DNA of 64,000 bases from Candidatus Bathyarchaeota archaeon (GCA_963827165.1 CAWGZR010000011.1:96001-160000), one strand, 5' to 3'. Numbered from the stretch's first letter, positions 9,247-63,167 are shown. Numbers and translations are program-made. Notes: a model not told the origin generated them from the sequence alone.

Positions 9247-10698
9247 AAGAAATAATCATAGACCCGATAACTACGGCTTGAAGGACACGGAAACGTATCC
9301 ATATTCTTAAACGACAAAGGCGAAGTTGAAAACGCATACCTCAAAATCCCAGAGTTGAGAGGTTTCGAGAAATTCTGCATCGGCAGAAAAGCCGAGCTCA
9401 TGCCACAACTCACCACAAGAATCTGCGGTGTCTGCCCAGTTGCACATCACTTCGCAGCTACCAAAGCCCTGGACGCAGCTTTCCATGTTGAACCACCCGA
9501 ACCAGCAAAGAAACTTCGGGAACTCATGTACACCGCTTACTTCATCTACGACCACATCCTACACTTCTACTACCTCGGCGGACCAGACTTCATAGTTGGA
9601 CCAGACGCACCGCCAGAAAAACGCAACATTCTAGGAGTAATCGAAAAAGTCGGAATGCCCATCGCCAAAGAAGTCATAAAACACCGCGCTTACGGTCAAA
9701 AAATGACTGAGATCATTGGTGGTAAAGCCACTCACCCCGTCTGCGGCCTACCCGGAGGAATCAGCAAGCCTCTGAGCGAAGAAAACAGGAAAGAAATAGA
9801 GACAATGGCGGCTTCATGCGTAGATTTCGCGCAGTTCACACTAAAAATCTTTCATGACATCGTGTTGGGTAACACAAAATATGTTGAATTAATCAAAAGC
9901 CAAGCCTATACAATGCCAACCTACTATATGGGCACAGTAGACAATAACAACAAAGTCAACTTTTACGACGGCAAAATCCGCGTAGTTGACCCATCAGGAA
10001 AAGAATTCCTCAAATTCGACTCGCAAGACTACCTCAAACATATCGCTGAACACGTTGAAGAATGGACCTACAGCAAATTCCCGTACCTTAAAGCAGTCGG
10101 CTGGAAAGGACAAATCCCCGGCAAAGACAGCGGTGTCTACCGCGTTGGTCCACTGGGACGATTGAACGCTTCAAACGGCATGGCGACACCCTTGGCCCAG
10201 GCAGAATACGAAGTCATGTACAAGACCTTGGGCGGCAAACCAGTACACAGCACGTTGGCTTTCCATTGGGCACGTTTGATTGAGTTGCTCTACGCTACTG
10301 AACGAACCATGGAGCTCGTTAAGGACCCAGAAATCACCAGCACAAACGTCCGCAACAAGCCCGGAGAACCAGGCGAAGGAGTAGGCATCGTAGAAGCGGC
10401 GCGCGGCACATTGATCCACCACTACGTCTTAGACAAAGATGCGCTCGTTAAAGACGTAAACCTGATTGTTGCTACAACCAATAATTACCCAGCGATCTGC
10501 ATGAGCATTCGCGACGCGGCAAAAGGCTTAATCCACGAAGGCAAAGTCGACCAAGGCATACTGAACATGGTTGAAATGGCTTTCAGAGCATACGACCCGT
10601 GTTTCGGATGCGCAACACACGCTGCAGTCGGGCAAATGCCTCTAACTGTAGAAGTCTTCAACGCCGACAAACAGCTAATCGACTCTGTCAGCCGGTAA
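9243..10698 (+). CDS. mvhA: MvhA large subunit of group 3c [NiFe] hydrogenase; +1 frameshift at about 9273
   Basis: MKEIIIDPIT (ATG 9243), then an extra A, then RLEGHG. L1 is RICGVCPVAH and L2 is YDPCFGCATH. Confidence 0.9.
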
Positions 10699-12273: not shown

Positions 12274-12739
12274 TTTCTTTTCTTTTGAAAACGTAGTCTA
12301 TTGTGAATCTTTCTTTTCCCAGTGAATAATTGGTTTCTTTGAGTTCGATCTGGTCTTTTGTAACCCACTTTGCGATTATGTACTCTTCTAATTCTTGGTC
12401 CTCGAAGGTGCCTCTCCACTTGAGTTCAAGGGTTTTGTCATCCTTCCAGTTGCCGATATGGTCATGTGCTTCGCCCTCAGAAGTCATGCCGAAAAGATGT
12501 ACTTTCTGAGTGAGTTGATCAAAACTCCACAGGTCATTCTCATAGAAGTCATCGTAGCCTTCGATGTGAGTATCTATTTCAGAGTTTACTCCCACAGGAG
12601 GAATTTCCACAGCGGTCATTTCGCCGCAGCCGCTTACAATTTTGCCGTCAGCTGTCCGCAATGCTATGCCTACGCTCCATTCTCCGATGAGTTGCCTGAT
12701 CAACTCGAGCTCTTTGGGGGTTTGAACGCTTTCCGTCAT
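12257..12739 (-). CDS. Hypothetical beta-barrel protein (DUF1579-like)
   Basis: PKELELIRQLIGEW start and a beta-rich pattern; family call tentative. Confidence 0.6.
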   Translation of the reverse strand: MTESVQTPKELELIRQLIGEWSVGIALRTADGKIVSGCGEMTAVEIPPVGVNSEIDTHIEGYDDFYENDLWSFDQLTQKVHLFGMTSEGEAHDHIGNWKDDKTLELKWRGTFEDQELEEYIIAKWVTKDQIELKETNYSLGKERFTIDYVFKRKETNPAP

Positions 12740-12868
12740 AAAACCAAAACCAACAATCAAAAGCAGTCGCTGAAACGTAATAAAGAGATGTGGTTGCTTC
12801 CCTACAACAACTCGATGCGAGTTACGTTAATTAGCAGGTTTCCAATTAGCTATAGAAAGGTATGTTTT

Positions 12869-13348
12869 ATGGCTGGAAAAGCAGTTATTGTAATGGGTTC
12901 AGAACGGGATCTGGATTTTTCCCGTGGAATAGCCAAATACCTCAAAATGCTGGGTGTGAGCTACGAGTTTCGAGTTGCGTCTGCACATAAGACCCCCGAG
13001 AAAGTTCTGGAGTTAATCAGGGAATTCGAAGCTGAAAAAGTCGTCTATGTAACAGTTGCAGGACGCTCAAACGCCCTCAGCGGCTTCATCGACGGAAACT
13101 CATCCAAACCCGTAATCGCGTGTCCACCCTACTCAGAAACCTTCAGCGGCGCAGACATTTTTTCTTCACTTAGAGTTCCAAGCGGAATAGGTTCCGTCGT
13201 CACAATCGAAGCTGAAGGAGCAGCAATTGCAGCAGCAAAAATTCTTGGCTTAGAAGACAGCGTTGTAGCTGAAAACGTCAAGCAATATCAGGGATCAAAG
13301 AAGAAAGAACTCGAGAAAGCCAACGAATCAGTGAAAAAACTTAAATAA
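12869..13348 (+). CDS. purE: N5-CAIR mutase / AIR carboxylase PurE
   Basis: VIVMGSERD, VASAHKTPE, VAGRSNALSG and PVIACPP. The true start is ATG 12869; the longer ORF is read-through. Confidence 0.92.
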   Translation: MAGKAVIVMGSERDLDFSRGIAKYLKMLGVSYEFRVASAHKTPEKVLELIREFEAEKVVYVTVAGRSNALSGFIDGNSSKPVIACPPYSETFSGADIFSSLRVPSGIGSVVTIEAEGAAIAAAKILGLEDSVVAENVKQYQGSKKKELEKANESVKKLK

Positions 13349-13476
13349 ACAAGCCCTTTCCTTTTCCCGTTGGATTTTAACCTTATTTCTTGCCCTTCTT
13401 TTTGTTAGTTAACGGTAAGGTTAAATGAGATAGCGATAAACGGATACTGTAACAGAATCAGAATAGCCGAGGGACA

Positions 13477-14550
13477 TTGGGATTGGGAAGCGTGAAAGAC
13501 CTAGAACTAATAAAGAAACCAACAGCCGAGGCGATGGGAGTTGGCAGATTCCACTTTTCAGACCGTTACAGCGTCTTTGATTGGGGGGAAATGCCTGATC
13601 AAATAGGCGGCAAAGGCGCCGCGCTCTGCCTCATGGGCGCGCTCTGCTTTGAACAACTGGAGCGCAAAGGCGTGAAATCCCATTATCGGGGTTTAGTCGG
13701 CTTTAATGGCAATGGCAAAGCCGTAAGAATTAAAGAGATTAAACAACCTTCAAACGTCATGGAAGTCAGTTTAGTTAACGTTTACAAACCTAGAACAAGC
13801 GTTGCCGGCGGCAGACTAATGCATGACTACAGCATGTACACGCCTGAGTTGAAGAACTGCCTGATCCCGCTGGAAATCATCTACAGAAATGGTCTGCCCG
13901 AAGGTTCATCTGTTTTCAAAAGGCTTGAAGAGGGAAAAATCAAACTTTCTGATTTAGGCTTAGACCATTCTCCCACGTCCGGCGAGCAATTTGCTAAACC
14001 CATTTTCGATGTTAGCACCAAACTCGAGGAGACGGATCGCTACTTGACTTGGCAAGAAGCGCAAAAAATTGCGGGTTTGACCGACTTGGAACTTGAGAAA
14101 ATCCAGGCGATTCTACTCAAAGTGGATGAAACAATAACTGAAATCGCCTTGAAGGCTGGATTGAAAAATGAGGATGGAAAAATTGAGTTAGCCTTCGACG
14201 AAAACAGAGAATTGATGGTTATCGACGTTGTTGGGACGCTTGATGAGTGCCGATTTACCTATGAAGGTGTGCATGTAAGCAAGGAGGTTGCAAGGCAGTT
14301 TTACAAGAAGACACGTTGGTACACGGATTTGGAGCAGGCAAAGAAGGAGGCGGAAGCCAAAGGTATACTAGATTGGCAGTCACTTTGCAAGTCGAAGCCG
14401 CCTAAGCTGGAGCCTAAACTTAAGACCCTGATCAGCGAAATGTATATGGCTGCTGCTAACGAGATGACGGGGCATAAACTGTTTAACGCGCCCCTGCTTT
14501 CCCAAGTTATAGCCGAATACAAAGAGTCAATGAAGGGACAAAAATGTTAA
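13477..14550 (+). CDS. purC: SAICAR synthetase (archaeal long type)
   Basis: GSVKD, FSDRYSVFDWG, IPLEIIYRN, STKLEETDRY and DGKIE...DVVGTLDECRF. Confidence 0.92.
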   Translation: MGLGSVKDLELIKKPTAEAMGVGRFHFSDRYSVFDWGEMPDQIGGKGAALCLMGALCFEQLERKGVKSHYRGLVGFNGNGKAVRIKEIKQPSNVMEVSLVNVYKPRTSVAGGRLMHDYSMYTPELKNCLIPLEIIYRNGLPEGSSVFKRLEEGKIKLSDLGLDHSPTSGEQFAKPIFDVSTKLEETDRYLTWQEAQKIAGLTDLELEKIQAILLKVDETITEIALKAGLKNEDGKIELAFDENRELMVIDVVGTLDECRFTYEGVHVSKEVARQFYKKTRWYTDLEQAKKEAEAKGILDWQSLCKSKPPKLEPKLKTLISEMYMAAANEMTGHKLFNAPLLSQVIAEYKESMKGQKC

Positions 14551-15641
14551 GCGACAGCATCAAGCAAATAATAAAGAAATATGATTCTAACATGATTCGC
14601 ATAGGCGTTTTGGGTTCACATTCCGCGCTAGAGATTGCTTCAGGTGCAAAACAGGAAGGCTATGAAACAGTTGTAGTCTGCCAAAAAGGAAGAGAAAAAA
14701 CCTACACCAAGTATTACCGAAACCTGTTCGACCACGTCATTATGCTTGATAAATTCTCGCAAATAACCAATGAAGCAACGGTGAAGCGACTCACTGACTT
14801 GAACACCGTTTTTGTTCCCAACCGTTCCTTCTCCGTGTATGCTGGCTACGATGACATTGAGAAAAAGTTTGCCGTGCCACTGATGGGAAACCGTTCGATG
14901 CTGCGAACAGAAGAACGCAACACACCGAGAAACCAGCTTTACCTTCTGCAAAAGGCTGGGATAGCGACGCCGAAGACGTTCGAGACAGCGGAAGAAATTG
15001 ACCGCTTAGTAATTGTGAAAGTTCCAGAAAAAAAACGTGCAATTGAACGCGCCTTTTTCTTTGCGTCTTCTCCTGAAGAATATGTTAAAACCTCTCAAAA
15101 ACGAATAATGCAAGGAATAATAACTTGTGACGCGTTGGAAAAAGCGATTATAGAAGAATATGTCATAGGGGCTAAATTTAACGCTAATCTGTTTTGGTCG
15201 TCATTAACCGACGAAATCGACCTATTGGGTTTTGACAGGCGAATCCAAACAGACCTCGACGGAGTGCTGGATCTGCCCGCGTTGGAACAGCTAGAGTTAG
15301 GCATCCCCACTCAGAACATCGAAATCGGCCACATGGGCGCCACCATGCGGGAAAGTCAAATAGAAAAAATCTTTGAAGCCGCAGAAAAGTTCGTGGATAC
15401 CTGCAAGAAAGAATATCCGCCAGGCATGATCGGTTTGTTCGCTTTGCAGGGCGCCGTGACCAAGGATTTGGAATTCTTTGTTTTCGACGTTAGCCCCCGT
15501 GTTCCCGGATGCCCCTGCGTGGAGCCAACTTCGCCTTACATGAAATACAAATATGGAATGGAAGTCGGCCCCGGTAGACGCGTCGCCATGGAAGTTAAGC
15601 GGGCAATCAAGGAAGGAAGGCTTGCGGAAGTGGTTACGTGA
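14544..15641 (+). CDS. purP: PurP-family ATP-grasp protein (PurP paralogue)
   Basis: LGSHSAL, FVPNRSF, GNRxML and FDVSPRVPG. Confidence 0.85.
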   Translation: MLSDSIKQIIKKYDSNMIRIGVLGSHSALEIASGAKQEGYETVVVCQKGREKTYTKYYRNLFDHVIMLDKFSQITNEATVKRLTDLNTVFVPNRSFSVYAGYDDIEKKFAVPLMGNRSMLRTEERNTPRNQLYLLQKAGIATPKTFETAEEIDRLVIVKVPEKKRAIERAFFFASSPEEYVKTSQKRIMQGIITCDALEKAIIEEYVIGAKFNANLFWSSLTDEIDLLGFDRRIQTDLDGVLDLPALEQLELGIPTQNIEIGHMGATMRESQIEKIFEAAEKFVDTCKKEYPPGMIGLFALQGAVTKDLEFFVFDVSPRVPGCPCVEPTSPYMKYKYGMEVGPGRRVAMEVKRAIKEGRLAEVVT

Positions 15642-16723
15642 TAACAGAGGCGGACATTGGCAAAATCCTCGAAAAATACGATGAGAAAAAACTATCAATC
15701 GGCACTTTAGGTTCTCACAGTTCACTTAACATTTTCAAGGGCGCCAAAGAAGAAGGCTTCCGCACGGTCTGCGTCTGCAAAGAAAAAGACGCAATAATGT
15801 ACCGGAAGTACCCGCTCGTAGACGACCTGATCATAGTGAAAGACTTCACGGAACTCTTGAGCGAAAAGTTGCAAGAGAAACTTCGCAGCTTAAACGTCAT
15901 CTTGATTCCACACGGCTCCTTCACCGCTTACCTTAGCACTGAAGAGTTAACCGACAGCCTCTTCGTGCCCATGTTCGGAAACCGCCAGCTACTCCAATGG
16001 GAAGCAAACCGCAAATCCCAAGAAGAATGGCTACGACAGGCAGGGCTCCTGTTGCCGGCAACATTCAAAACGCCAGAGGACATCGACCGTTTGATCATCG
16101 CCAAACTGCCCGGCGCCAAAGGCGGAAGAGGATACTTCTTGGCGAATTCGCCGAAAGCCTTCCACAAAAAATTCAGCGAACTCGTAAAACGCGGCTTGCT
16201 CAAAAACGAGGATTTGCCTCTGATTCATTTGCAGGAGTACGCTCTTGGAGTCAACGTTTACCCAAGCTATTTTAGCTCCATTATAAATGATGACGTTGAA
16301 CTGCTTGCTATGGACAGACGTTATGAATCAGCGGTGGACTCTATTGGCAAAATCCCCGCAGCCGAACAACTCGAGATCGACGTTAACCCAACCTACACCG
16401 TTGTCGGCAACTTCCCGATTGTGCTTCGAGAATCTTTGCTTCCTGAAATCATGCGAATGGGAGACAACGTGCATAAAAAAGCCAAAGAGCTTGCACCGCC
16501 TGGAATCATAGGACCCTTCTGCTTGGAAACCGTTATAACCGATGACCTCAAAATCTTAACGTTCGAAATCTCCGCACGTATAGTTGCGGGAACAAACGTT
16601 GGCATCGGCACTTCACCCTACGCTTACCTCAAATACGGAGAAAACATGTACATGGGCAGACGCATCGCCAAGGAAATAAAAGAGGCATTAAAAAAGAATA
16701 GGCTGCAAGAAATCTCAGCTTAA
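15638..16723 (+). CDS. purP: FAICAR synthetase PurP
   Basis: LGSHSSL, IPHGSF, GAKGGRGYF, DRRYES and FEISARIVAGTN. Confidence 0.9.
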   Translation: MITEADIGKILEKYDEKKLSIGTLGSHSSLNIFKGAKEEGFRTVCVCKEKDAIMYRKYPLVDDLIIVKDFTELLSEKLQEKLRSLNVILIPHGSFTAYLSTEELTDSLFVPMFGNRQLLQWEANRKSQEEWLRQAGLLLPATFKTPEDIDRLIIAKLPGAKGGRGYFLANSPKAFHKKFSELVKRGLLKNEDLPLIHLQEYALGVNVYPSYFSSIINDDVELLAMDRRYESAVDSIGKIPAAEQLEIDVNPTYTVVGNFPIVLRESLLPEIMRMGDNVHKKAKELAPPGIIGPFCLETVITDDLKILTFEISARIVAGTNVGIGTSPYAYLKYGENMYMGRRIAKEIKEALKKNRLQEISA

Positions 16724-50436: not shown

Positions 50437-51477
50437 TTGATTCTGGCTTTTTCCACATTATTTTTCGTTAATTTGGGGAGTGGTCATCTTGTGGCTGCCG
50501 ACGAGCAAACTTATTCGCAGTGGACGTTCCATATGCTCAAAACCGGTGATTACATTACTCCTTGGGCTTTTGGCAGCGTTTTCTGGCTTGGCAAGCCGCC
50601 GCTTGTCATGTGGCTAATGTCTCTGTCTTTTCAAATCTTTGGCGTGAACAATTTTGCCGCACGATTCTGGAGCCCCATATTTGGCGCGCTGTCGCTGGTT
50701 CTCGTCTACTATTTGGGAAAGAAACTGTACAACCCCTATGTCGGATTCATGTCGGCCTTCGTTTTGGGGACGCTTACAACATTTTATGTTTATTCACGAC
50801 TCGCCATGACCGACGTTCCCTTAATCTTCTTCAGCTTGGGAACAATTTACTTCTTTGTTTTAACCGAGAAAACAGAAAAAACCACCCGATACGCCATCCT
50901 CAGCGGGTTATTCTTCGGGTTAGCCCTGATGACCAAGCAGATTGAAGCTCTCTTGGTTCTGCTGATCCTGATTTTGTATCTTGCGGCGACGAGGAAGACC
51001 TTGCGGTTTTTCTTTTCAAAAGGCTTTACTCTTTTCTGGACCATCGGGCTTCTTGTTTTTTCTCCCTGGTTAATCTACATGGCAGTTCATTTTGGCTCTC
51101 CATTTTGGCAATGGTATTTTGTTTACGACGTTCTTAATCGATCAGTAGGCGTAGTTGAGAATCACGCTGGAAACTACATATACTACTTCAACTTCCTTGC
51201 ACACAACGAAAGTTTGGTTTATCTGATACTCTTGCCAATAGGCGCGGCCCTGTGCCTTTTCAACGCGGTTTTCAAGCGGTTAAAAGCGGACACGCTGATT
51301 TTTCTGTGGATTGTCGTTGTTCTACTGGTGTTCACAATCGCTCAATCGAAACTTGACTGGTATATCCTGCCGGCTTTTCCAGCATTCGCGCTCGCCATCA
51401 GCAGTCTCCTCTATCAACTTGGAAAGAAAACTTATGGACTCCTAAAGAAAGTGCCACTTCGCAGGCTGCGCAAGTAG
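50437..51477 (+). CDS. ArnT/PMT-like GT-C glycosyltransferase (family 39/83)
   Basis: ADEQTY, KPPLVMW, ARFWSPIFG, RLAMTD, LMTK and KLDWYILPAFP. The frame is open back into the propeller gene. Confidence 0.85.
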   Translation: MILAFSTLFFVNLGSGHLVAADEQTYSQWTFHMLKTGDYITPWAFGSVFWLGKPPLVMWLMSLSFQIFGVNNFAARFWSPIFGALSLVLVYYLGKKLYNPYVGFMSAFVLGTLTTFYVYSRLAMTDVPLIFFSLGTIYFFVLTEKTEKTTRYAILSGLFFGLALMTKQIEALLVLLILILYLAATRKTLRFFFSKGFTLFWTIGLLVFSPWLIYMAVHFGSPFWQWYFVYDVLNRSVGVVENHAGNYIYYFNFLAHNESLVYLILLPIGAALCLFNAVFKRLKADTLIFLWIVVVLLVFTIAQSKLDWYILPAFPAFALAISSLLYQLGKKTYGLLKKVPLRRLRK

Positions 51478-52416
51478 CTAAAAGCTTCTGGGTTTACGAT
51501 TGTAAAGCACAGTCACTATCTCAAGTATCGATAACGCTGCAATCGCATAGAGCGGAATCCAATCATACAGGTACATCTGTGACACTGTTCCGGCATTAGT
51601 CTCCGTTGACAAAAACGCGAAGCCTACCCCGTTGTAGAGGAAGAATGGGAGATTTGTAGCTGCGAGAAAGGCGAAGGACCCGCCGATGAACTTCCGCAGC
51701 GAACCTCGGTTATACCATAGCAGAAGGGGCAAGGCAAACAGTGCAACCCGTGGGTCAAAAGCCCCAAAAGCAAAAAGCAGCGCCGACAGCCACGGTTTTT
51801 TGGAGAACCCAAAATAGATGGCGCCTACTAAAAGGACAGTTTGGAGTATGTGGGCGTTTGCTAAGAGGTATCCGCAGTAATAGCTGGGCGAGAAAGTTTG
51901 CACGTGGAGACTAAGCATGCGGTAATGCAGAAACCCAGCGATGGAGTAGCTCGCTGAAGGAGCAATTAGAATTGGATCAACTAGTACAATTACGGCTGCT
52001 GCTGCTCCGACGAAGAGGTTTTTGCTTGCAACTATTTTGTAGACGAAAAAAGCTAGGACCAAAATTAAGATGGCTTGAACTATGTCGAAGGCGTTAAGTG
52101 CGTCCTGGTAGCCTAAGCTAAGGAAAGGCGCAAAAAGTATCAGAAAAGACGGCGTGTACTTGAACGGTTGTGGCTGCGGCTGAATTGGGTAGTCGCCTGG
52201 TTGAACGCTGGCGGAGTAGATTTGGGTCGGGTTATGGATTAGCCGCCATTCCCCGATGTAGTACGCTGAGAAATCCCTCGCCAAAGTGGGTGCTTCAGGC
52301 TTGAAAGTCTGTGGGTAAGCGTATAGGAAGATGCTCAAATTCAAGAAAACCAATACACCGATGAGTAATATGATTCCCGTTTTTCTGGACAAGACAAGTT
52401 TCATTGGCTTTCCCAT
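51478..52416 (-). CDS. GT87/DUF2029-like membrane glycosyltransferase
   Basis: RDFSAYY...IY...FKYTPSFLILFAPF; multi-TM. Confidence 0.7.
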   Translation of the reverse strand: MGKPMKLVLSRKTGIILLIGVLVFLNLSIFLYAYPQTFKPEAPTLARDFSAYYIGEWRLIHNPTQIYSASVQPGDYPIQPQPQPFKYTPSFLILFAPFLSLGYQDALNAFDIVQAILILVLAFFVYKIVASKNLFVGAAAAVIVLVDPILIAPSASYSIAGFLHYRMLSLHVQTFSPSYYCGYLLANAHILQTVLLVGAIYFGFSKKPWLSALLFAFGAFDPRVALFALPLLLWYNRGSLRKFIGGSFAFLAATNLPFFLYNGVGFAFLSTETNAGTVSQMYLYDWIPLYAIAALSILEIVTVLYNRKPRSF

Positions 52417-52634
52417 GGATAGGTGCGACGAATCTGTTTGAAACACGATTTATTCTTTGCGGTAAATCCCTCTAAACTCGAAAACCAGCGAAAAAGGGAT
52501 TATCGGCTGAAGTGCTGAAACTTTCGAGTTTTGACTAAAGAAAAGGGCAACTCGACATGATAGTCGATTTATAGAAACCCTTTAATTGGCGGTGATTTCA
52601 GTTCCATCTAAGCCTTAAAGGAGAAAAATTTGGA

Positions 52635-53387: not shown

Positions 53388-53510
53388 GACTCGATCGGCA
53401 GCAACTTTTCGGCTTTTGAAGAAGAAATTACATGAAGTGAACGTTGGTCGAGAACTCAAGTTTATCAGAGTGAAATACTTTTATTTCTGAACTTGAAGTG
53501 GTCTGGAGAA

Positions 53511-54272
53511 ATGGAAGTTTCCAAAATATCCAGTGCGTCTGAGCTCGAATTCGTCTTCCCAGACGGCTTCTCATTCTTTGAGCCTTATATTCAATACTTC
53601 GTCAAAGAAATTCTCGAGGTAGGCGGCGAGGCGTATGTCTCGAGAACTTCTGAGGGCGAGGTTTCGGGCATATTCATGTATGACCTGTCTGAGAATCAAG
53701 GAACAATTTACACGAGGTCAAGAGAAGTCTTCGACCACTTTTACGCCTTAAAACCGTTCAATTTCTTGTTCGCGGAGTTGAAAACTGAGCTCGAAAATGA
53801 AATCTACGATATTTACGGTGTACAATTTGAGAACATACCTGTTGATCATCGCTTTAGCTACGAGATTTCCATGGCGGATAAGGATCGAGTTGGTGAGATT
53901 GAGCAATTCATGTCTGCAACCCATCCTGGGATAAACAAAAAGTGGGTAGGCGTGGCGCTTAAGAATGGCCAACGGTGCTTTGTTGTCAGCTTAAACCACG
54001 AAATTGCAGGGTTAGGCTGGGCTACGATTGTGAATGGCGTTGGAAGATTGCATACTCTCTATGTGAAACCCCAGTTAAGGCGAATAGGCATAGGGGAAGA
54101 TATTTTGAATGCCCGTCTTCTCTGGCTTAAGGCAAATCACGCCAATTCTGCATTCTGCGAGATTTCCCGTTACAACGTGGCTTCAGCTGGGAATGTTATG
54201 AAAGCGCATATGCGGGTGTCTGGACAGGTTTTCCAGTATTTTAGGAAAGACTTCGATAAAAATAAGAAATAA
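53511..54272 (+). CDS. GNAT family N-acetyltransferase
   Basis: LYVKPQLRRIGIG acetyl-CoA motif in the C-terminal domain. Confidence 0.8.
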   Translation: MEVSKISSASELEFVFPDGFSFFEPYIQYFVKEILEVGGEAYVSRTSEGEVSGIFMYDLSENQGTIYTRSREVFDHFYALKPFNFLFAELKTELENEIYDIYGVQFENIPVDHRFSYEISMADKDRVGEIEQFMSATHPGINKKWVGVALKNGQRCFVVSLNHEIAGLGWATIVNGVGRLHTLYVKPQLRRIGIGEDILNARLLWLKANHANSAFCEISRYNVASAGNVMKAHMRVSGQVFQYFRKDFDKNKK

Positions 54273-54289: not shown

Positions 54290-55312
54290 CTATGTTCTGG
54301 GCGCTCCGCAAATGGGACAAGTTTCTGCGGTGGAGTCTATTAGTGCTCCGCAGTAGCGGCATTTTACTTTTACAACCTCTTTAATCACGATCTGCTGCAC
54401 TTGCGGCTGCTTCGGAGTCAAATCAATTTGGGGTACAGGCGGCGGCGAAGTCGGCGGGGAATATTCTTGTTGGGGGCTATGCTTTGGAAGGCTTCTTCTC
54501 CTGGAAATAGCGATAATGATGATGATGACTATGATTACAATGATAACAAGCGCTATTGCCGCGATGAGGCCAACATTTAGGGTTGCACTCGAATTTCCTC
54601 CAGTTGCCGTCGTCAGCGAATAGCTGCTTGAGGTCACATATAGGTTGTCGGTCCATGTGAACCCGTCGCCTGAAGGGTTGGTATCGTGTTCAACGTATTC
54701 ATATCCGATTATGTACCCCGTGGTCGGGTCAAAGTAGGCTTTCCACGTGTAGGCGGCGGTGAATTGTCCGTAGTTATCGTTGCGTTCATAGCTTGAGGTT
54801 CCTTGGGCAGAAATCGCGTTGACGTTCCTGTTCTGGGAGGAAAGATAGTAGCTGTAGCTAGTGGATTCGACGGTCATTTGGGTGTTTAGAATGGTGAAGG
54901 CGCCTCCATTCTGGATTGAGTTATCCATCAGGAACCAGACTGTTGGGTTGACATAGCCTGTTTGGTCGTCTGTCCCATCGATGTAATAGTAGTCGGCGGA
55001 TGAGAAAGTATAGCTTCCTGATTGGCTGCCGGTTTCGGTTGAGCTTGAGGAGCTGTTGCTGTAAGTCCAAGAGTAGTCATATGAGGCAGAAACGACTCCG
55101 CTCGCATCAACGCTGTTCATCGTTTCCTTTCCATCCACAACTGTCTGCTCAGTGTAACCAGAATAGCTACCTGTGCCGCTTCCAAGGCTTTCAACCTCGT
55201 GATAGTTGAAGTGGTCGCCTTGATGGGGCACGTAGGTTGCCGCGGCAATGACTGGAGAAGCTGCTATGAAAAGCGAAAGGACGATGATAAGAAACAGGGA
55301 TTTCGAGGTCAA
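54290..55312 (-). CDS. Single-pass membrane protein: extracellular S/T/Y-rich domain, TM, Pro-rich linker, cytoplasmic zinc ribbon
   Basis: Signal peptide, YFDPTTGYIIG, IIVIIVIIIIIAISRRR and CRYCG...CPICGA. Confidence 0.8.
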   Translation of the reverse strand: MTSKSLFLIIVLSLFIAASPVIAAATYVPHQGDHFNYHEVESLGSGTGSYSGYTEQTVVDGKETMNSVDASGVVSASYDYSWTYSNSSSSSTETGSQSGSYTFSSADYYYIDGTDDQTGYVNPTVWFLMDNSIQNGGAFTILNTQMTVESTSYSYYLSSQNRNVNAISAQGTSSYERNDNYGQFTAAYTWKAYFDPTTGYIIGYEYVEHDTNPSGDGFTWTDNLYVTSSSYSLTTATGGNSSATLNVGLIAAIALVIIVIIVIIIIIAISRRRSLPKHSPQQEYSPPTSPPPVPQIDLTPKQPQVQQIVIKEVVKVKCRYCGALIDSTAETCPICGAPRT

Positions 55313-56868
55313 CCCATGAACCCTCCGACTCCGTGTACGTGTGCAGGATGGAAGCCTCCGATGGAACTGAACGTAGAGTAATAGTATGAATGTGCGACTA
55401 TCAGCGGTGCGTAGTAGAGGAAGAATATGTTTGATGGAATATATGTGAATTGCATCGGGGTGTTGGTGAGTTTTGCGGTTGGATCAAGTTCCTTTACCAG
55501 TTCGTTTTTGACTCCGTGAATCATTCTGACTGAGAGACTCAGAAGTTCAGGGGGAAAGAGGTCTTTAGCGTATGTTCCAAGCAGAGAATAGGCTTTCTGC
55601 ATCAAGTCAAGGGTCTCGTTGGCTTCGAGCGTTGATATAGACGCAAGGATCGCGGAGGCAACAAGTGGATACTCAAGATAGTTTTTGAGTGCATCGACAA
55701 TTATTGTCAACTTCGTGTTCACTTCACCAGGTGCTAAATCGGCGATCGACAGATACGCAGAAGCAAGTTCGGTATCCTCCGACACCTGATATCCCCAGGA
55801 ATTAAACATCGATCTGAAAGACTGGAATTTATCGGTCAACTGGTCAAAAGGAACATTTACAACAGCGAGGATTGCAGCTGATTCACTCGAAGAGGTCATT
55901 TTGGAAAATTGCGCAAATCTATCAGTTGGAAATGTCCCGTCAAATCTTTTTCCGAACATGATGATGGCTGCGACACCGACTGACAGCTCTTTTGGAACCT
56001 TATCATGCCTGACTTCCTTGTCAAGGTTTCCCAAGGAAGCTAACAGGTTTTGCAAGTCGGAATCACTAGACGACTGAGTTTGGCCATCCGCAAAGCTGGT
56101 AATAATCTCTGCCGCCATCATCTTGTTTTCGATGGTGGATTTGAAATGCTGAAGACTGTTTGTGGCCAGAAGAAATCTTTGGGAGATTTGATTAGGGTCG
56201 CCCTGAAGCTTTCCTAAGCCCACTGAGACGCTCCACAGCTGGGAAAGGTCTGCCCCTGGAAATTCAGCGATGAACCGATTGGCGTAGAAGGCAGCTTTGT
56301 ATGCTATGTTCCTTAGTTCATCGGACGTTTCCTTTGTTTCTTCGATGAAGTCTGAGAACTCGTTGCCAGAAACCCTGTAGTTTCTGACGTTGAGATCATT
56401 CAGTGTCACTACTCCGAGCCCAGTTAATGACAGATATACGCCGCTGTAAGGCACCATTCGATCAGTCACGGATTTCTTCTGAATTAACTCGTTAATTTTA
56501 GCGTCTTTTTCTGCTATTTCACCGTCAATTTTCGAAACAGCCGACTTTTCACTTTCAACTTTTTCGCGTTCCGCTTCCTTAACCTCTTTTCCTTCAAAAA
56601 GAAACTTGATCGAATGAGTTTTGCCCTCATCTTCTTGAAGCGCGCTTTTTGCGCCCCTATCTGCATTCTCCTCATTCGCCAAATCTATGCTCATTTGCGT
56701 CAAACTTGAAACTTCAGCCACAGCCTGATCGTAAGCTTCTTTCTGCATAACAGAAAGGTAGCCATTATCGCGTAGAAAATCAATGTCAGGTTGGGAAATT
56801 TGCATTGAAATTGATTTTTCAGCTATTTGGGAAAAAAATGTTCTAGCGTCGTTGCAGCGCATATTCAT
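55309..56868 (-). CDS. Hypothetical 519-aa protein: coiled coil inserted in a wHTH-like domain, helical repeats (DUF4003-like), Gly/His-rich tail
   Basis: FLRDNGYL...coil...YLSLTGLG; repeated [A/S]AIL[A/S] helices; GGFHPAHVHGVGGFMG. Confidence 0.75.
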   Translation of the reverse strand: MNMRCNDARTFFSQIAEKSISMQISQPDIDFLRDNGYLSVMQKEAYDQAVAEVSSLTQMSIDLANEENADRGAKSALQEDEGKTHSIKFLFEGKEVKEAEREKVESEKSAVSKIDGEIAEKDAKINELIQKKSVTDRMVPYSGVYLSLTGLGVVTLNDLNVRNYRVSGNEFSDFIEETKETSDELRNIAYKAAFYANRFIAEFPGADLSQLWSVSVGLGKLQGDPNQISQRFLLATNSLQHFKSTIENKMMAAEIITSFADGQTQSSSDSDLQNLLASLGNLDKEVRHDKVPKELSVGVAAIIMFGKRFDGTFPTDRFAQFSKMTSSSESAAILAVVNVPFDQLTDKFQSFRSMFNSWGYQVSEDTELASAYLSIADLAPGEVNTKLTIIVDALKNYLEYPLVASAILASISTLEANETLDLMQKAYSLLGTYAKDLFPPELLSLSVRMIHGVKNELVKELDPTAKLTNTPMQFTYIPSNIFFLYYAPLIVAHSYYYSTFSSIGGFHPAHVHGVGGFMG

Positions 56869-58037
56869 TACCGATCCATTATTGGGAATTTCTTAGTTAA
56901 AGATTGCTCTCCCATGATGTTACCGACGACCAGCTTAAGGCTTTGCCCCTCACTTGCAAGGTCAACAACTTCATCATCTTTGAGGGCTTCTTTGAGGAAA
57001 TATTCAAACTGCGCTTTCCTATCCGCGATAACCTCGAACCTTGCACATCGTTCCCGTTCTATCTGCTCGTAAGCATACATAAACTCATACAAGGATCTGT
57101 AAATCTGATCATCTATCTTTTCCGAAACTTTCTTTTCCTCAACGGTTATCCATTCCAAGCCCTCAAGATCCACAAAATAAATAGTGCCGTCCGGAGCGAG
57201 CACTGCGTCCTTGTCCAGCCACACATCATAGAAATCTAGTCCACTGAAAGTTCCGTTGCCATTGCTTTTTATTGACCTAGTAAACAGGGTTAGAAATGCG
57301 ATTCCGCTCTTAACAAAGTTCTTCAGGAACTCCAACGCTTTGTCATTGCTGTTTATTTCAAAAAGATCAAAAACCGAACGCGTGTTTCCGCCGATTGTGC
57401 TCCCGGAATGAAAATAAATCCTAATGTTAGACGGAACCAACCTTATCTCCTGAACCATCCTGCCGCCAAACCTGCGGTACCAAAACAATTTTTTTGCTTC
57501 ATCTTCGAGTTTTTTGGGAAGAAAGACTATTTTCACAACCGGCGCAATTCGGAATCCGTGAATGGAAGTGAGATCGGCCATTTCTGAAACTCTCATCGAA
57601 GTGACTGCATGCTCCAAGCCTTGTCCCCCATATGGCGAACCCCTTAGCCACAATTCTCCAGTCAGGTATCGTGGCGATTTTTCTTCAAAATTAATGATTG
57701 CGTCTTTGAGTTTGGAATCTTTAAGCAGACTGCATATTTCGGCTTTTCCTAGGAGCTGGTGGGAAAACGGGTTGGTCGTAGAACCTATTCCTTTAACTGA
57801 AAAGTAAAAGTCAGTGCCATCTAACTTCACGAAAGGCGAAGTGGCGACTGCTCCGCGGTTATCGTCAACAATAAACTCTTTTGAACCCGACGGGGTGCCG
57901 TCCAAGAAAGGTCTCATGCTCTCGGGAACGTAAATTTTTTCAAAATCTGGCATCTTGAACTCTTTAAAATGCTTGTTTGTCAAAAACTCAGAAACTTCGT
58001 AAGTGTCAAGAGTGAGAGGTAAACCTTTCAGCTTCAT
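56868..58037 (-). CDS. Divergent protein-kinase-like protein resembling SelO/YdiU AMPylases
   Basis: DNRG, SVKGIGS...PFS, PYGGQ, IRLVPSNIRI and WLDKDAV...YFVDLE. Confidence 0.6.
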   Translation of the reverse strand: MKLKGLPLTLDTYEVSEFLTNKHFKEFKMPDFEKIYVPESMRPFLDGTPSGSKEFIVDDNRGAVATSPFVKLDGTDFYFSVKGIGSTTNPFSHQLLGKAEICSLLKDSKLKDAIINFEEKSPRYLTGELWLRGSPYGGQGLEHAVTSMRVSEMADLTSIHGFRIAPVVKIVFLPKKLEDEAKKLFWYRRFGGRMVQEIRLVPSNIRIYFHSGSTIGGNTRSVFDLFEINSNDKALEFLKNFVKSGIAFLTLFTRSIKSNGNGTFSGLDFYDVWLDKDAVLAPDGTIYFVDLEGLEWITVEEKKVSEKIDDQIYRSLYEFMYAYEQIERERCARFEVIADRKAQFEYFLKEALKDDEVVDLASEGQSLKLVVGNIMGEQSLTKKFPIMDR

Positions 58038-58379: not shown

Positions 58380-58934
58380 CTATTTCACTGTCACTTTGTG
58401 TTTTTTCGGCGCGGGTACGATTGTCTTCTTTGGTACGCTGACTTTAAGTAATCCATCTTTAAATGTTGATTCTGCTTGTTCTGGGATTACTTCTTCAGGG
58501 AAGTCTAGCTGTTTGTGTATGTGTGAGTATAAGCGTTCTCTGACTACATAGTTCTTCTCTGTATCTTCTGTTTCAATGTCTGTTTCAGCCGAGATTTCAA
58601 TACTATCAGTTGTCAACGCTACGTCTATATTGTCTTTGGCTACTCCGGGCATCTCAGCATGTACCACAAACTTGTTTCCTTCATCAACCAGATCTACAGT
58701 TGCTTCTCGAACGGGAACACCAGGTTCAACGCTTATCCATTCAAATGGGAAAGCTATGCTTTCGATGAAGTTTTCGCGAAAATCTTCCATTAAATTGTCA
58801 AAGGTTGTAAGGACATGTATTGCTGGAACTTGCTTGTTGGGTATGCGTTTGGCGGGAACATGCTTTACAGGCTTTATAGTTTTTTCAGATTTTACTATCG
58901 CCTTAATCGACGCCTTTTTTTGTATTTCAGTCAT
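58380..58934 (-). CDS. hsp20: Small heat-shock protein Hsp20
   Basis: VDLVD...AEMPGV.K..I...ER.Y...P...A...DGLLKVSVPK. Confidence 0.9.
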   Translation of the reverse strand: MTEIQKKASIKAIVKSEKTIKPVKHVPAKRIPNKQVPAIHVLTTFDNLMEDFRENFIESIAFPFEWISVEPGVPVREATVDLVDEGNKFVVHAEMPGVAKDNIDVALTTDSIEISAETDIETEDTEKNYVVRERLYSHIHKQLDFPEEVIPEQAESTFKDGLLKVSVPKKTIVPAPKKHKVTVK

Positions 58935-59607: not shown

Positions 59608-60894
59608 ATGGCAGAACATAAATTGCCATTAGAATACGTCTGCAGGAAATGCAACAAAACCTATTCAAACCTGGAGTATGAGGAGAGTAGGTTTTGCAAG
59701 GCTTGCGGTTCTTTTCTTTTGCGCAATTTTAGAGATGACCGTTATGCAGAGATGTTGGCTCAAAAAAGCTTTCGCAACCAAGCATCCACAACTGTCGCAA
59801 ATAGTTCTTTCAAAGAGAAAATCGCACTGACACGGGCAGCCGAAAGTTTAAGCGGAAGAATAGGACGTTCGAAAGAGTATGAGGTAATTTCTGAAACAGA
59901 AAAAAACATGGAGCGCCCTGCTGAATCTGTGGTTGAAAGCTGGATTTGGAGCAGCGAATACGATGAGGCACTTAAACTTGAACAAGAACTCATCAAACAA
60001 TATGAAGGCAAAAACCTTCAAAACTCAATAGCTGGAGAGGTTGTTTCAAACCAACAGGGAGAATGCTACCAGATCTCAGCTTCATGCATTTCCACTTTCA
60101 AAAAAGCAACTTACCAAGAAAGTAGACAACAAATCATCTCTGATTTGAAAGCTCTTCCTGGAATAGGACCCGCACGCGAACAAACTCTGAAACAGCAAGG
60201 CTACATGACAATAGAAGACCTTGAAAATCACCCCCTTTGGAAAAAACAAGCCCACGACTTCATGAAAGTAATAGATAAAAAAGAAATCCCCTTGATTCAA
60301 AATTGGCTTTGGCAACGCTTTCCAAAATCTCATCCTCTGCTTCATTATTTAGCTGGTTTCTGCCAAGATCAAGACTTCGCTATCGTGGACATTGAAACTT
60401 TGGGGCTCTCCGAGCGGCCTATAATTTTGCTCGGCGTAGCCACACCAACCAAGACTCATGTTTGTACGAGTCAGTTTTTGCTAAGAGATATTCAAGATGA
60501 ACCAGGTGCTATTTGGGCTCTTGTTTCGCGGCTTGAACCCAACTTGTCACTCATAACTTATAATGGCAGGAGCTTTGATATTCCATACATTAGGCAAAGA
60601 TTAGCTTATTATGGTTTAGATGCGCCGTTGGATAATCCACATTTTGATGTTTTGCACTTCACCAGGCGGGCTCTTCGTCATAAACTGTCAGATTGCAAAC
60701 TGGAAACCGTGGAGAAATACATCGGAATAAAAAGAGACATCAACATTCCAGGTGCTTTAGTTCCCCACTTTTACGAGACTTATTTGAGAACCAAAAATGC
60801 AGGACCGCTCGTCGCCATAGTTGAGCACAACCGGCAAGACCTGCTAACCCTTGGAACATTATTCTCCAAGCTTTATGAGGAATGGAACCTTTGA
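59608..60894 (+). CDS. YprB/MrfB-like DEDD exonuclease (RNase_H_2) with N-terminal zinc ribbon and HhH
   Basis: CRKC...CKACG; LPGIGPARE; DIETLGL, YNGRSFD and HNRQD. Confidence 0.85.
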   Translation: MAEHKLPLEYVCRKCNKTYSNLEYEESRFCKACGSFLLRNFRDDRYAEMLAQKSFRNQASTTVANSSFKEKIALTRAAESLSGRIGRSKEYEVISETEKNMERPAESVVESWIWSSEYDEALKLEQELIKQYEGKNLQNSIAGEVVSNQQGECYQISASCISTFKKATYQESRQQIISDLKALPGIGPAREQTLKQQGYMTIEDLENHPLWKKQAHDFMKVIDKKEIPLIQNWLWQRFPKSHPLLHYLAGFCQDQDFAIVDIETLGLSERPIILLGVATPTKTHVCTSQFLLRDIQDEPGAIWALVSRLEPNLSLITYNGRSFDIPYIRQRLAYYGLDAPLDNPHFDVLHFTRRALRHKLSDCKLETVEKYIGIKRDINIPGALVPHFYETYLRTKNAGPLVAIVEHNRQDLLTLGTLFSKLYEEWNL

Positions 60895-63167
60895 TTGACG
60901 ATTTTATTCAAAGCATAAAGCATATGCAAGGCTACAAAAAACAGATTGTGCACATACAAGAGATTCCTCCACAGGAAGCATGTTTTGGTGAGCTAGAGAA
61001 GTCTCTGCAGGCGAGCATCCAGGATTGCCTCTTGAACCGCGAAATTCATCTTTATTCGCATCAGGCAGAAGCCATAAATAAAGCAAGGGCGGGCAAGAAC
61101 GTGGCGATTGTTACTCCGACGGCTTCAGGAAAAACCTTAGCTTTTAACATTCCTGTTTTGGACGCTCTTGCCAAAGACGCCAAAGCAACGGCGCTTTACC
61201 TTTACCCGACTAAGGCGCTTACAAACGATCAGCTAAAGGTTCTAAGAGAGCTGGAGAAAGAAACGGGGATTCAAGCCTACCCTAACGTTTACGATGGTGA
61301 TACTCCTCAAAGTCAAAGGGCAAGGATACGCGAAAACAGTAAAATCATCTTAAGCAACCCTTATGGGCTTCACCAGTATCTTCCGTGGCATTATAAGTGG
61401 CGGAGCTTTCTTGGGAACCTTAAATTCGTGATAATTGATGAAGCGCACGTTTATCGAGGAGTCTTTGGCTCAAACGTAGCTATGCTTCTGAGGCGGCTAA
61501 TTAGAGTATGCAATTATTATCATGCTGACCCCCAAATCATCCTCTCGTCAGCCACCATCGCAAATCCAGGTGAGCACGCCAAGAGATTGACGGGTAAAGA
61601 CTTTGAAATAGTTTCGAACGACGGCGCGCCCCGAGGAAAAAAATCATTCGTGTTCTGGAACCCGCCGTTCATCGGCAGCACCCAAACCACTCGAAGATCT
61701 ACTCATCAAGAAACAAAAGACCTTCTAACCATAAACATCACAAAGAACCTGCAAACCCTATGTTTCACAACATCTCGCCAGATGGCTGAGCTTATAACAA
61801 GATGGACCAAAGAAGACCTGAAAAAGCGGTCGCCAAAACTGGTCAACTCCGTTACAGCTTACAGGGCGGGCTATCTGCCTCAAGAACGGCGCGAGATAGA
61901 GAACCGACTGAAAACAAAAAGTTTGATCGGGGTTGTTTCAACCAATGCGCTTGAGTTGGGTATCGATATTGGTTCTTTGGATTCAGTGATCATTTCTGGT
62001 TACCCGGGAACGGTCATATCGACTTGGCAGCAGGCGGGGAGAGCTGGCAGGACAAATGCAGATTCTCTTGTTACGTTGGTTGCTTTTCAAAACCCGCTTG
62101 ATCAATACTTCATGAAGCATCCCAAAGACTTCTTTGGACGGCCACATGAGCAAGCCATTATTGATTTGCATAATCGCTACATTTCTCTGGGGCACATTAT
62201 GTGTGCGGCAAGCGAGCTGCCACTGACAGAGGCAGACAAAAAATATTTCCCCGAACTATTCCAAGAGAGTATTCAAGCTCTTGAACAACAAAACCTGGTC
62301 CGCAAAACGCCCCGGGGATATGTCTATTCGGGAACTGCAAGACCTGTCGAGGTTGTGACGTTGGAGAGCATCTCAGACAAAACTGTCACCGTAACCTGCA
62401 ACGGAAACATACTTGAAACGCTCACGTTAAACAAGGCTTACGAAGAAGCTCATGAAGGTGCAGTCTTGCTTCATCAGGGCGAAACATACATCTCTGAAGA
62501 ATTGGATCTCAACAAATTAACGGCTAAAGTCACGCAAGAAAACGTCAACTACTACACGGAAGCGCTGAAAACCGTTGATGTCGCAATAAAGAAAATTCAT
62601 GAAGAAAAACAAATCGGCATCCAAGTTGGCTTGGGCGAATTAATTACAACTGAATTTTACCACACTTACCTAACCAAATCATATGATGCGGTTGTTGAGA
62701 GAAAACCGCTTAATCTTCCGCCGTTATCGTTTTCGACTGTCGGAATGTGGTTTATAATTCCGGAGGAAATAAAAAAAGAAATCGAAGATAACGGTCTCGA
62801 TTTTGACGGGGGAATACATGCGGCGGAGCATGCGATGATTGCGATGTCGCCTATGTTTGCGATGTGTGACAGATGGGATATTGGAGGGTTATCGACTCCA
62901 CTGCATCCAGACACTGGGAACCCGACGATTTTCATTTATGATGGCTTTGAAGGTGGGATTGGAATTTCAGAAAACCTCTACCAAAACATAAAACCGCTTT
63001 TCGAAAAAACTCTTGAGCTGATCGAGAATTGCGAGTGTAAGGACGGTTGCCCCTCATGCATTTACTCGCCTAAATGCGGAAATGAAAATAAACCATTGGA
63101 CAAGAAGGCGGCAAGCATAATTCTTCAGAGGATTTTAGTGAGGCTGGAAAGCAATCATTCCTCGTAA
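60882..63167 (+). CDS. YprA/MrfA/Hrq1-like DEAH helicase with DUF1998 zinc domain
   Basis: TPTASGKT, DEAH, SAT, TNALELGIDIG, QQAGRAGR and C.C.DGCPSCI.SPKC. Confidence 0.92.
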   Translation: MEPLIDDFIQSIKHMQGYKKQIVHIQEIPPQEACFGELEKSLQASIQDCLLNREIHLYSHQAEAINKARAGKNVAIVTPTASGKTLAFNIPVLDALAKDAKATALYLYPTKALTNDQLKVLRELEKETGIQAYPNVYDGDTPQSQRARIRENSKIILSNPYGLHQYLPWHYKWRSFLGNLKFVIIDEAHVYRGVFGSNVAMLLRRLIRVCNYYHADPQIILSSATIANPGEHAKRLTGKDFEIVSNDGAPRGKKSFVFWNPPFIGSTQTTRRSTHQETKDLLTINITKNLQTLCFTTSRQMAELITRWTKEDLKKRSPKLVNSVTAYRAGYLPQERREIENRLKTKSLIGVVSTNALELGIDIGSLDSVIISGYPGTVISTWQQAGRAGRTNADSLVTLVAFQNPLDQYFMKHPKDFFGRPHEQAIIDLHNRYISLGHIMCAASELPLTEADKKYFPELFQESIQALEQQNLVRKTPRGYVYSGTARPVEVVTLESISDKTVTVTCNGNILETLTLNKAYEEAHEGAVLLHQGETYISEELDLNKLTAKVTQENVNYYTEALKTVDVAIKKIHEEKQIGIQVGLGELITTEFYHTYLTKSYDAVVERKPLNLPPLSFSTVGMWFIIPEEIKKEIEDNGLDFDGGIHAAEHAMIAMSPMFAMCDRWDIGGLSTPLHPDTGNPTIFIYDGFEGGIGISENLYQNIKPLFEKTLELIENCECKDGCPSCIYSPKCGNENKPLDKKAASIILQRILVRLESNHSS

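Follow-up and report, generated by a model that had tools for sequence, protein, structure and literature searches.

The DNA analysed here is a stretch of 64,000 nucleotides from a Candidatus Bathyarchaeota archaeon (GCA_963827165.1 CAWGZR010000011.1:96001-160000), which is referred to as the window and in which positions are counted from the first letter. On its minus strand lies an open reading frame (ORF) with an ATG start (56868..58037), hereafter gene A, which encodes an atypical protein-kinase-like enzyme of 389 amino acids with remote likeness to SelO/YdiU. Gene A is followed on the same strand by gene B (55309..56868), which codes for an all-helical protein of no known family, and by gene C (54290..55312), which codes for a single-pass membrane zinc-ribbon protein. 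The start of gene B overlaps or abuts the stop of gene A, and genes B and C overlap by 4 nucleotides. A GNAT acetyltransferase gene on the plus strand (gene G; 53493..54272) is convergent with gene C. The original prediction, which was made from the sequence of the window, described the product of gene A as a highly divergent SelO/YdiU-like pseudokinase and candidate AMPylase.

The predicted ORF of gene A is real, and the motifs that had been quoted for it are all found in the translation and in the order given. DNRG (residues 59-62; 57852..57863) is followed by FSVKGIGSTTNPFS (residues 79-92; 57762..57803), which holds K82, the presumed lysine of strand beta3 (residues 75-82). The GSPYGGQ loop (residues 133-139; 57621..57641), for which the GDGRA stretch of SelO is only a candidate counterpart, precedes the presumed alphaC helix (residues 141-153). 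EIRLVPSNIRI (residues 197-207; 57417..57449) contains R199 and R206 in the pattern R-x-x-P-S-x-x-R and overlaps a strand (residues 194-201). DVWLDKDAV (residues 271-279; 57201..57227) falls into the predicted catalytic-loop region and YFVDLE (residues 287-292; 57162..57179) into the predicted metal-site region, with D290 at the position of the DFG Asp. Conservation was assessed in an alignment of 117 sequences, which comprised the window protein, 76 ORFs from fetched loci and 40 representatives. R61, G83, G137, P166, Q196, R199, P202, R206 and D290 are present in all 117 proteins, and K82 and S203 (116 each) as well as D277 (115, with Asn in the other two) are near-invariant. Furthermore, E292 is found in 114 proteins (Asp in the other three), G85 in 114 and L291 in 113, and the GSPYGGQ loop is marked by P135 (115/117) and Q139 (111/117). 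The conserved core of the family is made up of the motifs quoted earlier.

Homologues of gene A are numerous. At E<=1e-3, 1381 sequences were retrieved from 5866 candidates (90 % clusters). For the best 120, the identity is 76-100 %, and those that bear a name are 'hypothetical protein' entries of Bathyarchaeia. A phmmer search of 1.84 billion representatives at the 50 % identity level yielded 122 relatives at E<=1e-3, and the full-length ones reach down to about 20 % identity. The family occurs in Bathyarchaeia, non-ammonia-oxidising Nitrososphaerota, Thermoplasmatota and a few bacteria. Some of the remote relatives are labelled Deltaproteobacteria, and contrary to the original prediction the family is not strictly archaeal. 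For comparison, SELO was confined within the Archaea to a few Euryarchaeota according to a 2012 survey. Fused longer forms of gene A (682-2000 amino acids) were looked for and not found, which is weak evidence, and a tblastn search of plasmids and phages gave nothing at E<=1.

An AlphaFold2 model of gene A, built from a 41-sequence alignment, reached a predicted local distance difference test score (pLDDT) of 93.9 and a predicted template modelling score (pTM) of 0.92. In a Foldseek search of the PDB, ranks 1-7 were all occupied by YdiU (9jym, 6iii, both chains of 6lna, 6k20, 9l29 and 9jyn), with E-values of 5.6e-4 to 2.1e-3, probabilities of 0.99-1.00 and TM-scores (TMq) of 0.34-0.45. The SelO protein of P. 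syringae (6eac_A) gave a TMq of 0.44. Among the remaining matches listed, all of which were ordinary kinases or proteins resembling kinases, TMq was 0.19-0.28, and the TM-scores of YdiU/SelO are about twice those of any kinase. The modelled fold is kinase-like, its nearest solved structures are YdiU/SelO and it does not group with the canonical kinases, as the original prediction had anticipated. A fold search of viral proteins in BFVD returned weak generic kinase matches only; nidovirus replicase fragments came no higher than ranks 13-14 (TMq 0.26).

The bilobal kinase-like fold is common to gene A and SelO/YdiU (PF02696; PDB 6EAC, 6K20, 6LNA, 9JYM), which is the best structural match. With canonical kinases (haspin, ACVR1, GAK, WaaP), gene A has in common the fold, the beta3 Lys, the metal residue of the catalytic loop and the DFG-type Asp. 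By its fold and by K82, D277 and D290, it belongs to the superfamily of protein kinase-like (PKL) proteins. Unlike canonical kinases, however, it has no HRD Asp and no GxGxxG Gly-rich loop, and it has extra invariant Arg residues. Gene A also departs from SelO in its architecture. Relative to SelO, there is an insertion of about 45 residues, with two helices, behind the K-G-x-G loop. The C-terminal helical domain of SelO is absent, as had been noted from the sequence (389 vs 478 amino acids), and so is the CxxC/U motif in which it often ends; the protein closes with two helices and a three-stranded sheet (beta domain, residues 358-388) and ends in ...FPIMDR.

In the model, residues 271-292 are laid out like the catalytic loop, beta7, beta8 and DFG segment of a kinase: D271-V-W-L-D-K-D277 is followed by strands 278-280 and 286-288 and by V-D290-L-E. 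The spacing of 13 between D277 and D290 is that between N171 and D184 in PKA. If D277 occupies the position of Asn171, gene A has no HRD Asp and V272 stands in its place; this position is Val in 108 of the 117 proteins, Ser in three, Ala in two and Asp in none. A Val at the HRD-Asp position is also a feature of SelO, which carries HGV where kinases have HRD, according to a published account (PMC3281104). In SelO, ATP is bound flipped, and its gamma-phosphate is held by K113, E136, R176 and R183, while N253 and D262 bind Mg, as described in another report (PMC8097203). R199 and R206 of gene A are 7 residues apart, which is the spacing of R170 and R177 of SelO (E. coli numbering), their predicted counterparts in the SelO sequence R-V-A-P-S-x-x-R. 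The order of motifs is likewise similar in the two proteins: [DG]-[GN]-R is followed by [LV]-K-G-x-G, R-x-x-P-S-x-x-R, a metal residue and, 9-13 residues further on, an Asp. The phosphate- and metal-binding positions are precisely the ones kept even at about 20 % identity, which speaks for gene A being an active enzyme. Since the SelO-like Arg residues go together with a missing HRD Asp, transfer of a nucleoside monophosphate (NMP) would be the best guess for its chemistry. This preference over phosphorylation, which is read from conserved residues, is held tentatively and at somewhat less than even confidence; transfer of AMP is plausible. The AMPylase function and the possibly different nucleotidyl-transfer chemistry of the original prediction are likewise inferences.

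The most informative feature of the locus, which the original prediction had missed, is its gene context: genes A, B, C and G form a conserved four-gene module. A locus scan with a 15-sequence alignment and one genome per species covered the best 80 of 237 confirmed gene A loci, which are all at least 52 % identical; the distant relatives (20-38 % identity, the bacterial ones included) lie outside these 80 loci. By a hand count of titles, 42 loci are from Bathyarchaeota/-ia, 20 are of the Nitrososphaerota type, 12 are from Thermoplasmatota and three from unclassified archaea, and three carry bacterial bin labels. With the neighbours in the window as tblastn queries, B was found in 73, C in 70 and the GNAT gene in 74 of the 80 loci. 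Gene A has at least 4.5 kb of sequence on either side in 47 loci, and each of these contains all four genes; overall, 68 of the 80 loci have the full set. Of the 12 loci that are incomplete, 11 are cut off by the end of a contig; the remaining one (L054) has no detectable C. Two gene orders occur: in 33 complete loci, A-B-C is found with a convergent G, and in 23 the order is B-C-A-G. A quick maximum-likelihood tree was computed for 76 A proteins, in which the loci with the order B-C-A-G form one clade (29 rows, SH-aLRT 100). This points to a single rearrangement that the linkage of the four genes survived. Genes for export or bacteriocins are absent from the module. In all likelihood, the product of gene A acts jointly with B, C and the GNAT enzyme.

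Gene B has 677 homologues, of which none is named and none has a Pfam domain. In the window, its ORF comprises 519 codons, and a database entry of 517 amino acids that is 100 % identical suggests that translation starts at the second ATG (56862; MRC...). The orthologues begin with MKC, and an alignment of 18 of them has Cys throughout at position 3 of the 517-amino-acid form. The AlphaFold2 model of B (pLDDT 78.7) is all-helical up to residue 452, and the pLDDT is below 50 for residues 453-519. A small N-terminal domain is followed in the model by coiled-coil helices (residues 56-84 and 94-136) and by a helical repeat that resembles an alpha/alpha toroid. By Foldseek (E<=1e-3), no natural relative of B was found, and only designed alpha/alpha toroids matched over part of the model; Pfam searches with 18 members and a profile search of the PDB did not reveal a natural relative either. 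Despite its predicted disorder, the C-terminal tail (...AHSSYYSTFSGIGGFHPAHVHGVGGFxG) is the most conserved part of the protein, down to its final residue. Of 69 B ORFs, 64 have Gly as this residue; the exceptions are two apparently truncated ORFs and a subgroup of three (L049, L054 and L066) in which B ends with ...RMIYGQ and has no His/Gly tail. In this subgroup, the zinc ribbon at the C-terminus of C is of another kind, or C is undetectable by tblastn (L054). The tail-less variant of the module could inform about the role of the B tail.

Gene C codes for 340 amino acids. According to hydropathy, the protein consists of a signal or transmembrane segment (residues 1-29), an outer domain rich in Ser, Thr and Tyr, a transmembrane segment at about residues 245-272 and a Pro-rich cytosolic tail. 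The conserved tail (IDLTPKQPxVQQIVIKEVVKVKCxYCGxLIxSTAxTCPxCGAPR) ends in a zinc ribbon with matches to zinc-ribbon families of Pfam, and a profile search of the PDB with C gave nothing. The GNAT protein has 259 amino acids and matches PF00583 (4e-7). Its C-terminal half is RimI-like, with a match to TIGR01575 rimI (5.2e-6) that is under the cut-off, and the alignment shows an R-x-x-G-x-G motif; the N-terminal half is conserved and of no recognised type. An assignment of this protein to the acyltransferases of the HlyC/MchD type was considered and rejected, since hhalign gave 0.2 % against MchD and the match is to PF00583 instead.

The overall best explanation of these observations, which we favour with reserve and which falls short of being probable, is that gene A is a SelO-type enzyme of a membrane-associated modification module. 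The nucleotide would be bound in the manner of SelO, so that K82 would contact the buried gamma-phosphate and R199 and R206 would clamp it, and Mg2+ would be held by D277 and D290. Gene A would then transfer not the gamma-phosphate but a nucleoside monophosphate, most likely AMP with release of pyrophosphate, and its target would be a residue with a hydroxyl group in one of the module partners. The first candidate substrate is the disordered C-terminal tail of B, which is rich in Ser, Tyr and Thr; that this tail is indeed modified by gene A is unlikely on our estimate. The conserved cytosolic tail of C is the second candidate, and through this tail C may also anchor the assembly to the membrane. 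The GNAT enzyme might add a second modification, acetylation, or compete with the first. In a bolder version, which we judge quite unlikely, the four genes would constitute an undescribed archaeal system in which gene A, acting on the cytosolic zinc-ribbon tail of C as a membrane receptor, either nucleotidylates the B tail or adenylates and ligates it, with the GNAT enzyme as second writer. If true, this would be a membrane-coupled AMPylation or C-terminal tagging pathway, unlike the stress signalling of SelO and the maturation of microcins.

How far the likeness to SelO extends was examined by profile comparison. An alignment of eight SelO proteins, namely that of E. coli and seven diverse plasmid-borne ones (one sequence with an internal stop was dropped), gave the consensus LGDGRA, QLKGSGRTPYSR, RVAxSHLRVG and HGVMNTDN...DYGP, which agrees with the SelO consensus given in the original prediction. 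The hhalign profile of SelO was made from these eight sequences only and was used without secondary-structure scoring; the profile of MchC-like proteins contained seven sequences, i.e. MchC of E. coli CFT073 and the products of six MchC-like genes. In every hhalign run, the local alignment placed DNRG...VKGIG of gene A over GDGR...LKGAG of SelO, and K82 was paired with SelO K107 (E. coli numbering). The pairwise P-values against SelO were 0.007-0.01 for the full family, 0.016 for a distant sub-profile and 0.047 for a middle sub-profile. In a permissive run only, QEIRLVPSNIRI of gene A was paired with MLMRVAPSHLRF of SelO, which covers the region of R199 and R206. Of the proposed equivalence of motifs, the N-terminal part stood in all runs and the register of the C-terminal lobe was not recovered.

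The sequence profiles weigh against a SelO-type enzyme. The protein of the window matches no Pfam family at E<=1 and no NCBIfam family, PF02696 is found at E<=1 in none of 41 members of the gene A family, and a sequence search of the PDB with either a single gene A sequence or the 41-sequence profile gave no match. The hhalign probability of the 41-sequence family against SelO was 4.2 % (P 0.0099), with local reruns at 5.5 %, 2.9 % and 1.1 %; against the seven MchC-like proteins it was 0.6 %, and 0.15 % against E. coli MchC alone. As a positive control, SelO against the MchC-like proteins reached 97.3 % (E 1.8e-11). This control pair was detected at 12 % identity, and hhalign is therefore sensitive enough; a relation of gene A to SelO is not seen there. 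As controls for PF02696, SelO of E. coli was recovered at 9.3e-154 and an MchC-like protein of Photobacterium at 2.1e-7, and E. coli MchC had no match at E<=0.01. Moreover, the permissive run did not place the motifs of the C-terminal lobe in the register proposed here. At the active site, gene A has Asp (D277) where SelO has Asn and D-L-E in place of the strictly conserved D-[YF]-G, and these are the very changes that had been described as a remodelled catalytic loop. The acidic or metal-binding function of D277 and D290 is probably kept, though the SelO signature is lost. Furthermore, an invariant Glu of the alphaC helix was sought in the 117 sequences and not found: in the predicted helix 141-153, E142 is kept in 68/117 and E152 in 81/117, and better conserved Glu residues, E128 (106/117) and E197 (107/117), lie outside it. 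The structural evidence has limits too, as the TM-score of 0.44 is below the usual same-fold line of 0.5 and the Foldseek E-values of YdiU are just about 5-fold better than that of haspin.

With a TM-score of 0.44 and marginal E-values, SelO is to be called the nearest known relative of gene A, which does not amount to family membership. The likeness in sequence is weakly above chance, and it becomes convincing only because the predicted fold supports it. There is no significant profile relation between the two, and the four-gene context belongs to gene A. The assignment to a subfamily of SelO/UPF0061 in the original prediction is therefore not supported by any sequence test (PF02696 in 0/41 at E<=1, hhalign 4.2-5.5 %): gene A represents a kinase-like family of its own, which is unannotated and has a remote likeness to SelO. 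That it is a kinase-fold enzyme remotely related to SelO is very probable. A match to Csm3 reported by PADLOC (E 0.006, 15.8 bits, residues 206-353) is judged spurious because of the kinase fold and since there is no CRISPR context.

The same observations might be accommodated by a conventional kinase that transfers the gamma-phosphate to B, to C or to a metabolite, i.e. a protein or small-molecule kinase in which D271 or D275 replaces the HRD Asp. This is rather unlikely. The fold is kinase-like, both Foldseek lists otherwise consist of ordinary kinases, and gene A is not tied to SelO by sequence profiles. K82, D277 and D290 are universal ATP/Mg residues, and D271 (102/117) and D275 (105/117) provide conserved acidic residues in the catalytic loop. 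A D-x-E metal motif occurs in kinases of the choline/aminoglycoside type. However, the residue five positions before D277 is never Asp. Moreover, the set of R61, R199 and R206 has no canonical counterpart, whereas R199 and R206 match the clamp of SelO in spacing and in strand position, and the TM-scores to SelO/YdiU are about twice as high as those to any kinase.

A further alternative, drawn by analogy, is that gene A acts like MchC/MceJ. MchC is a distant SelO subfamily member that forms a complex with a HlyC-type acyltransferase and modifies the C-terminal Ser carboxylate of microcins by activating and esterifying it, according to two publications (PMC3281104, PMC7680869). By analogy, gene A together with the GNAT enzyme might use ATP to activate a C-terminal carboxylate, for which the C-terminal Gly of B would be the candidate, and ligate it to another molecule. 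Gene A and MchC/MceJ are both divergent SelO-like proteins that frequently go undetected by PF02696 and have a VKGIG(S)-NP stretch in common, and both adjoin a gene of the acyltransferase superfamily; six of the seven fetched MchC-like genes are annotated beside a HlyC-type acyltransferase gene. In a protein-language-model search (ESM atlas), unnamed archaeal clusters come first for gene A, and the nearest named cluster is 'MchC protein' (score 0.93, 183/256 features, PF02696 in 35 % of the members); as this is a cluster of the SelO family, the match also counts in favour of the SelO-type reading. The Gly at the end of B (64/69 ORFs) is carried on a disordered and conserved tail. In contrast to gene A, MchC keeps a kinase-like loop (H-G-x-L-x-S-S-N...D-F-G), and its partner is of the HlyC type (PF02794) in bacteriocin export clusters of Proteobacteria, whereas that of gene A is a RimI-like GNAT of PF00583 with 0.2 % against MchD. 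Nor does the module contain bacteriocin, export or siderophore genes, and B is a cytosolic protein of 517 amino acids rather than a secreted peptide. Because gene A is no closer to MchC (hhalign 0.6 %) than to SelO and because the GNAT enzyme is of another family, MchC-like ligation is rated lower and is decidedly unlikely.

Among the MchC-like genes fetched for this comparison, pairs with HlyC-type genes occur on plasmids of Photobacterium and Vibrio (L094/L095) and of Klebsiella (L091). The neighbours of these MchC-like genes encode glycosyltransferase-2, radical SAM and methyltransferase proteins, which suggests uncharacterised bacteriocin-maturation clusters unlike the H47/E492 type.

The nucleotide itself could be another one, with UMPylation as by YdiU or cleavage of NAD+ instead of AMPylation from ATP. 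The top Foldseek match (9jym) is YdiU in complex with NAD and Mn2+, the metal site of gene A is altered (D277, D-L-E), and SelO is reported in a 2026 commentary (PMC13391479) to be a NADase that yields nicotinamide mononucleotide and AMP. There is no residue-level support for base specificity, and the idea, very unlikely in itself, is a variant of the SelO-type reading and does not contradict it. Least probable of all, with a very slight chance, is a non-catalytic pseudokinase that would serve as nucleotide-binding scaffold or switch that brings B together with C's cytosolic tail at the membrane: the HRD Asp is absent, no activity is known and the gene is tightly linked to those of a large helical protein and of a protein in the membrane, but the invariant residues are the expected phosphate and metal binders (K82, R61, R199, R206, D277, D290 and E292), which is the pattern of active enzymes, and SelO is active despite the same HRD defect.

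In SelO-type enzymes, a kinase fold binds ATP upside down and transfers AMP, and the known examples are SelO/YdiU, the MchC branch and the viral NiRAN domain. The NiRAN domain of the nidovirus RNA-dependent RNA polymerase is reportedly called a 'SelO-like' NMP transferase. NiRAN, which uses its kinase-like fold for nucleotidyl transfer, has this fold in common with gene A, and no specific relation was seen (BFVD TMq 0.26). A further branch would widen the sequence space of flipped-ATP chemistry by a family that escapes sequence profiles, occurs widely among archaea of soil and peat and differs in its metal site. An earlier description of the gene A family or of the module was not found in the literature searched, with papers in subscription journals and bioRxiv supplements outside the scope of the search. 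Gene A stands for a PKL family that is new, that shows SelO-like features and whose genetic context is new as well. New kinase-like families turn up regularly, and what distinguishes this one is its defined candidate substrates: the three fixed partner genes offer concrete candidates of a kind long wanting in SelO research. Through the module, the function of four families that public records list as 'hypothetical protein' or leave unannotated becomes approachable for the first time; in the collections searched, A has about 1400 homologues and B about 680. Medical or safety relevance is not indicated.

The genes on the other side of gene A are not conserved beside it. There, a small heat-shock gene (Hsp20; 58380-58934, minus strand) lies 340 bp upstream on the same strand; it is found beside gene A in 0/80 loci and is therefore outside the module. 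Further on, a RecB-like nuclease of the RNase_H_2 type with a helix-hairpin-helix motif (428 amino acids) and a DEAH helicase of 761 amino acids are encoded with a 13-nucleotide overlap (59608-63167, plus strand). Near gene A, the RNase-H-like gene was found in 0/80 and the helicase gene in 1/80 loci. The helicase matches TIGR03817 'helicase/secretion neighborhood' (E 4.6e-240) slightly below the cut-off. At 50437-52446, a gene for a PMT_2-type glycosyltransferase (346 amino acids) is immediately followed on the opposite strand by one for a multi-pass membrane protein of 322 amino acids without a family match, and the latter gene recurs near the module in 2/80 loci.

Elsewhere in the window, a NuoF/HoxF-like subunit is spread over two overlapping ORFs in different frames (182-1186 and 966-1850, both plus strand), which together contain 2Fe-2S thioredoxin-like, FMN-binding 51K, SLBB and NADH_4Fe-4S domains; the split could be due to a frameshift or a sequencing error, or it could be genuine. 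Two pairs of genes for [NiFe]-hydrogenase-like small and large subunits (Oxidored_q6 and NiFeSe_Hases) are located at 1853-4540 and 6817-10698 (plus strand), the second of which is preceded by genes for 4Fe-4S and CCG (HdrB-like) proteins, and this suggests Mvh/Hdr-type or soluble bidirectional hydrogenase modules. Finally, downstream of PurE- and PurC-like genes (12395-14550), two tandem paralogues with DUF1246 and DUF1297 domains are encoded at 14544-16723 (plus strand), which we take to be of the archaeal PurP type.

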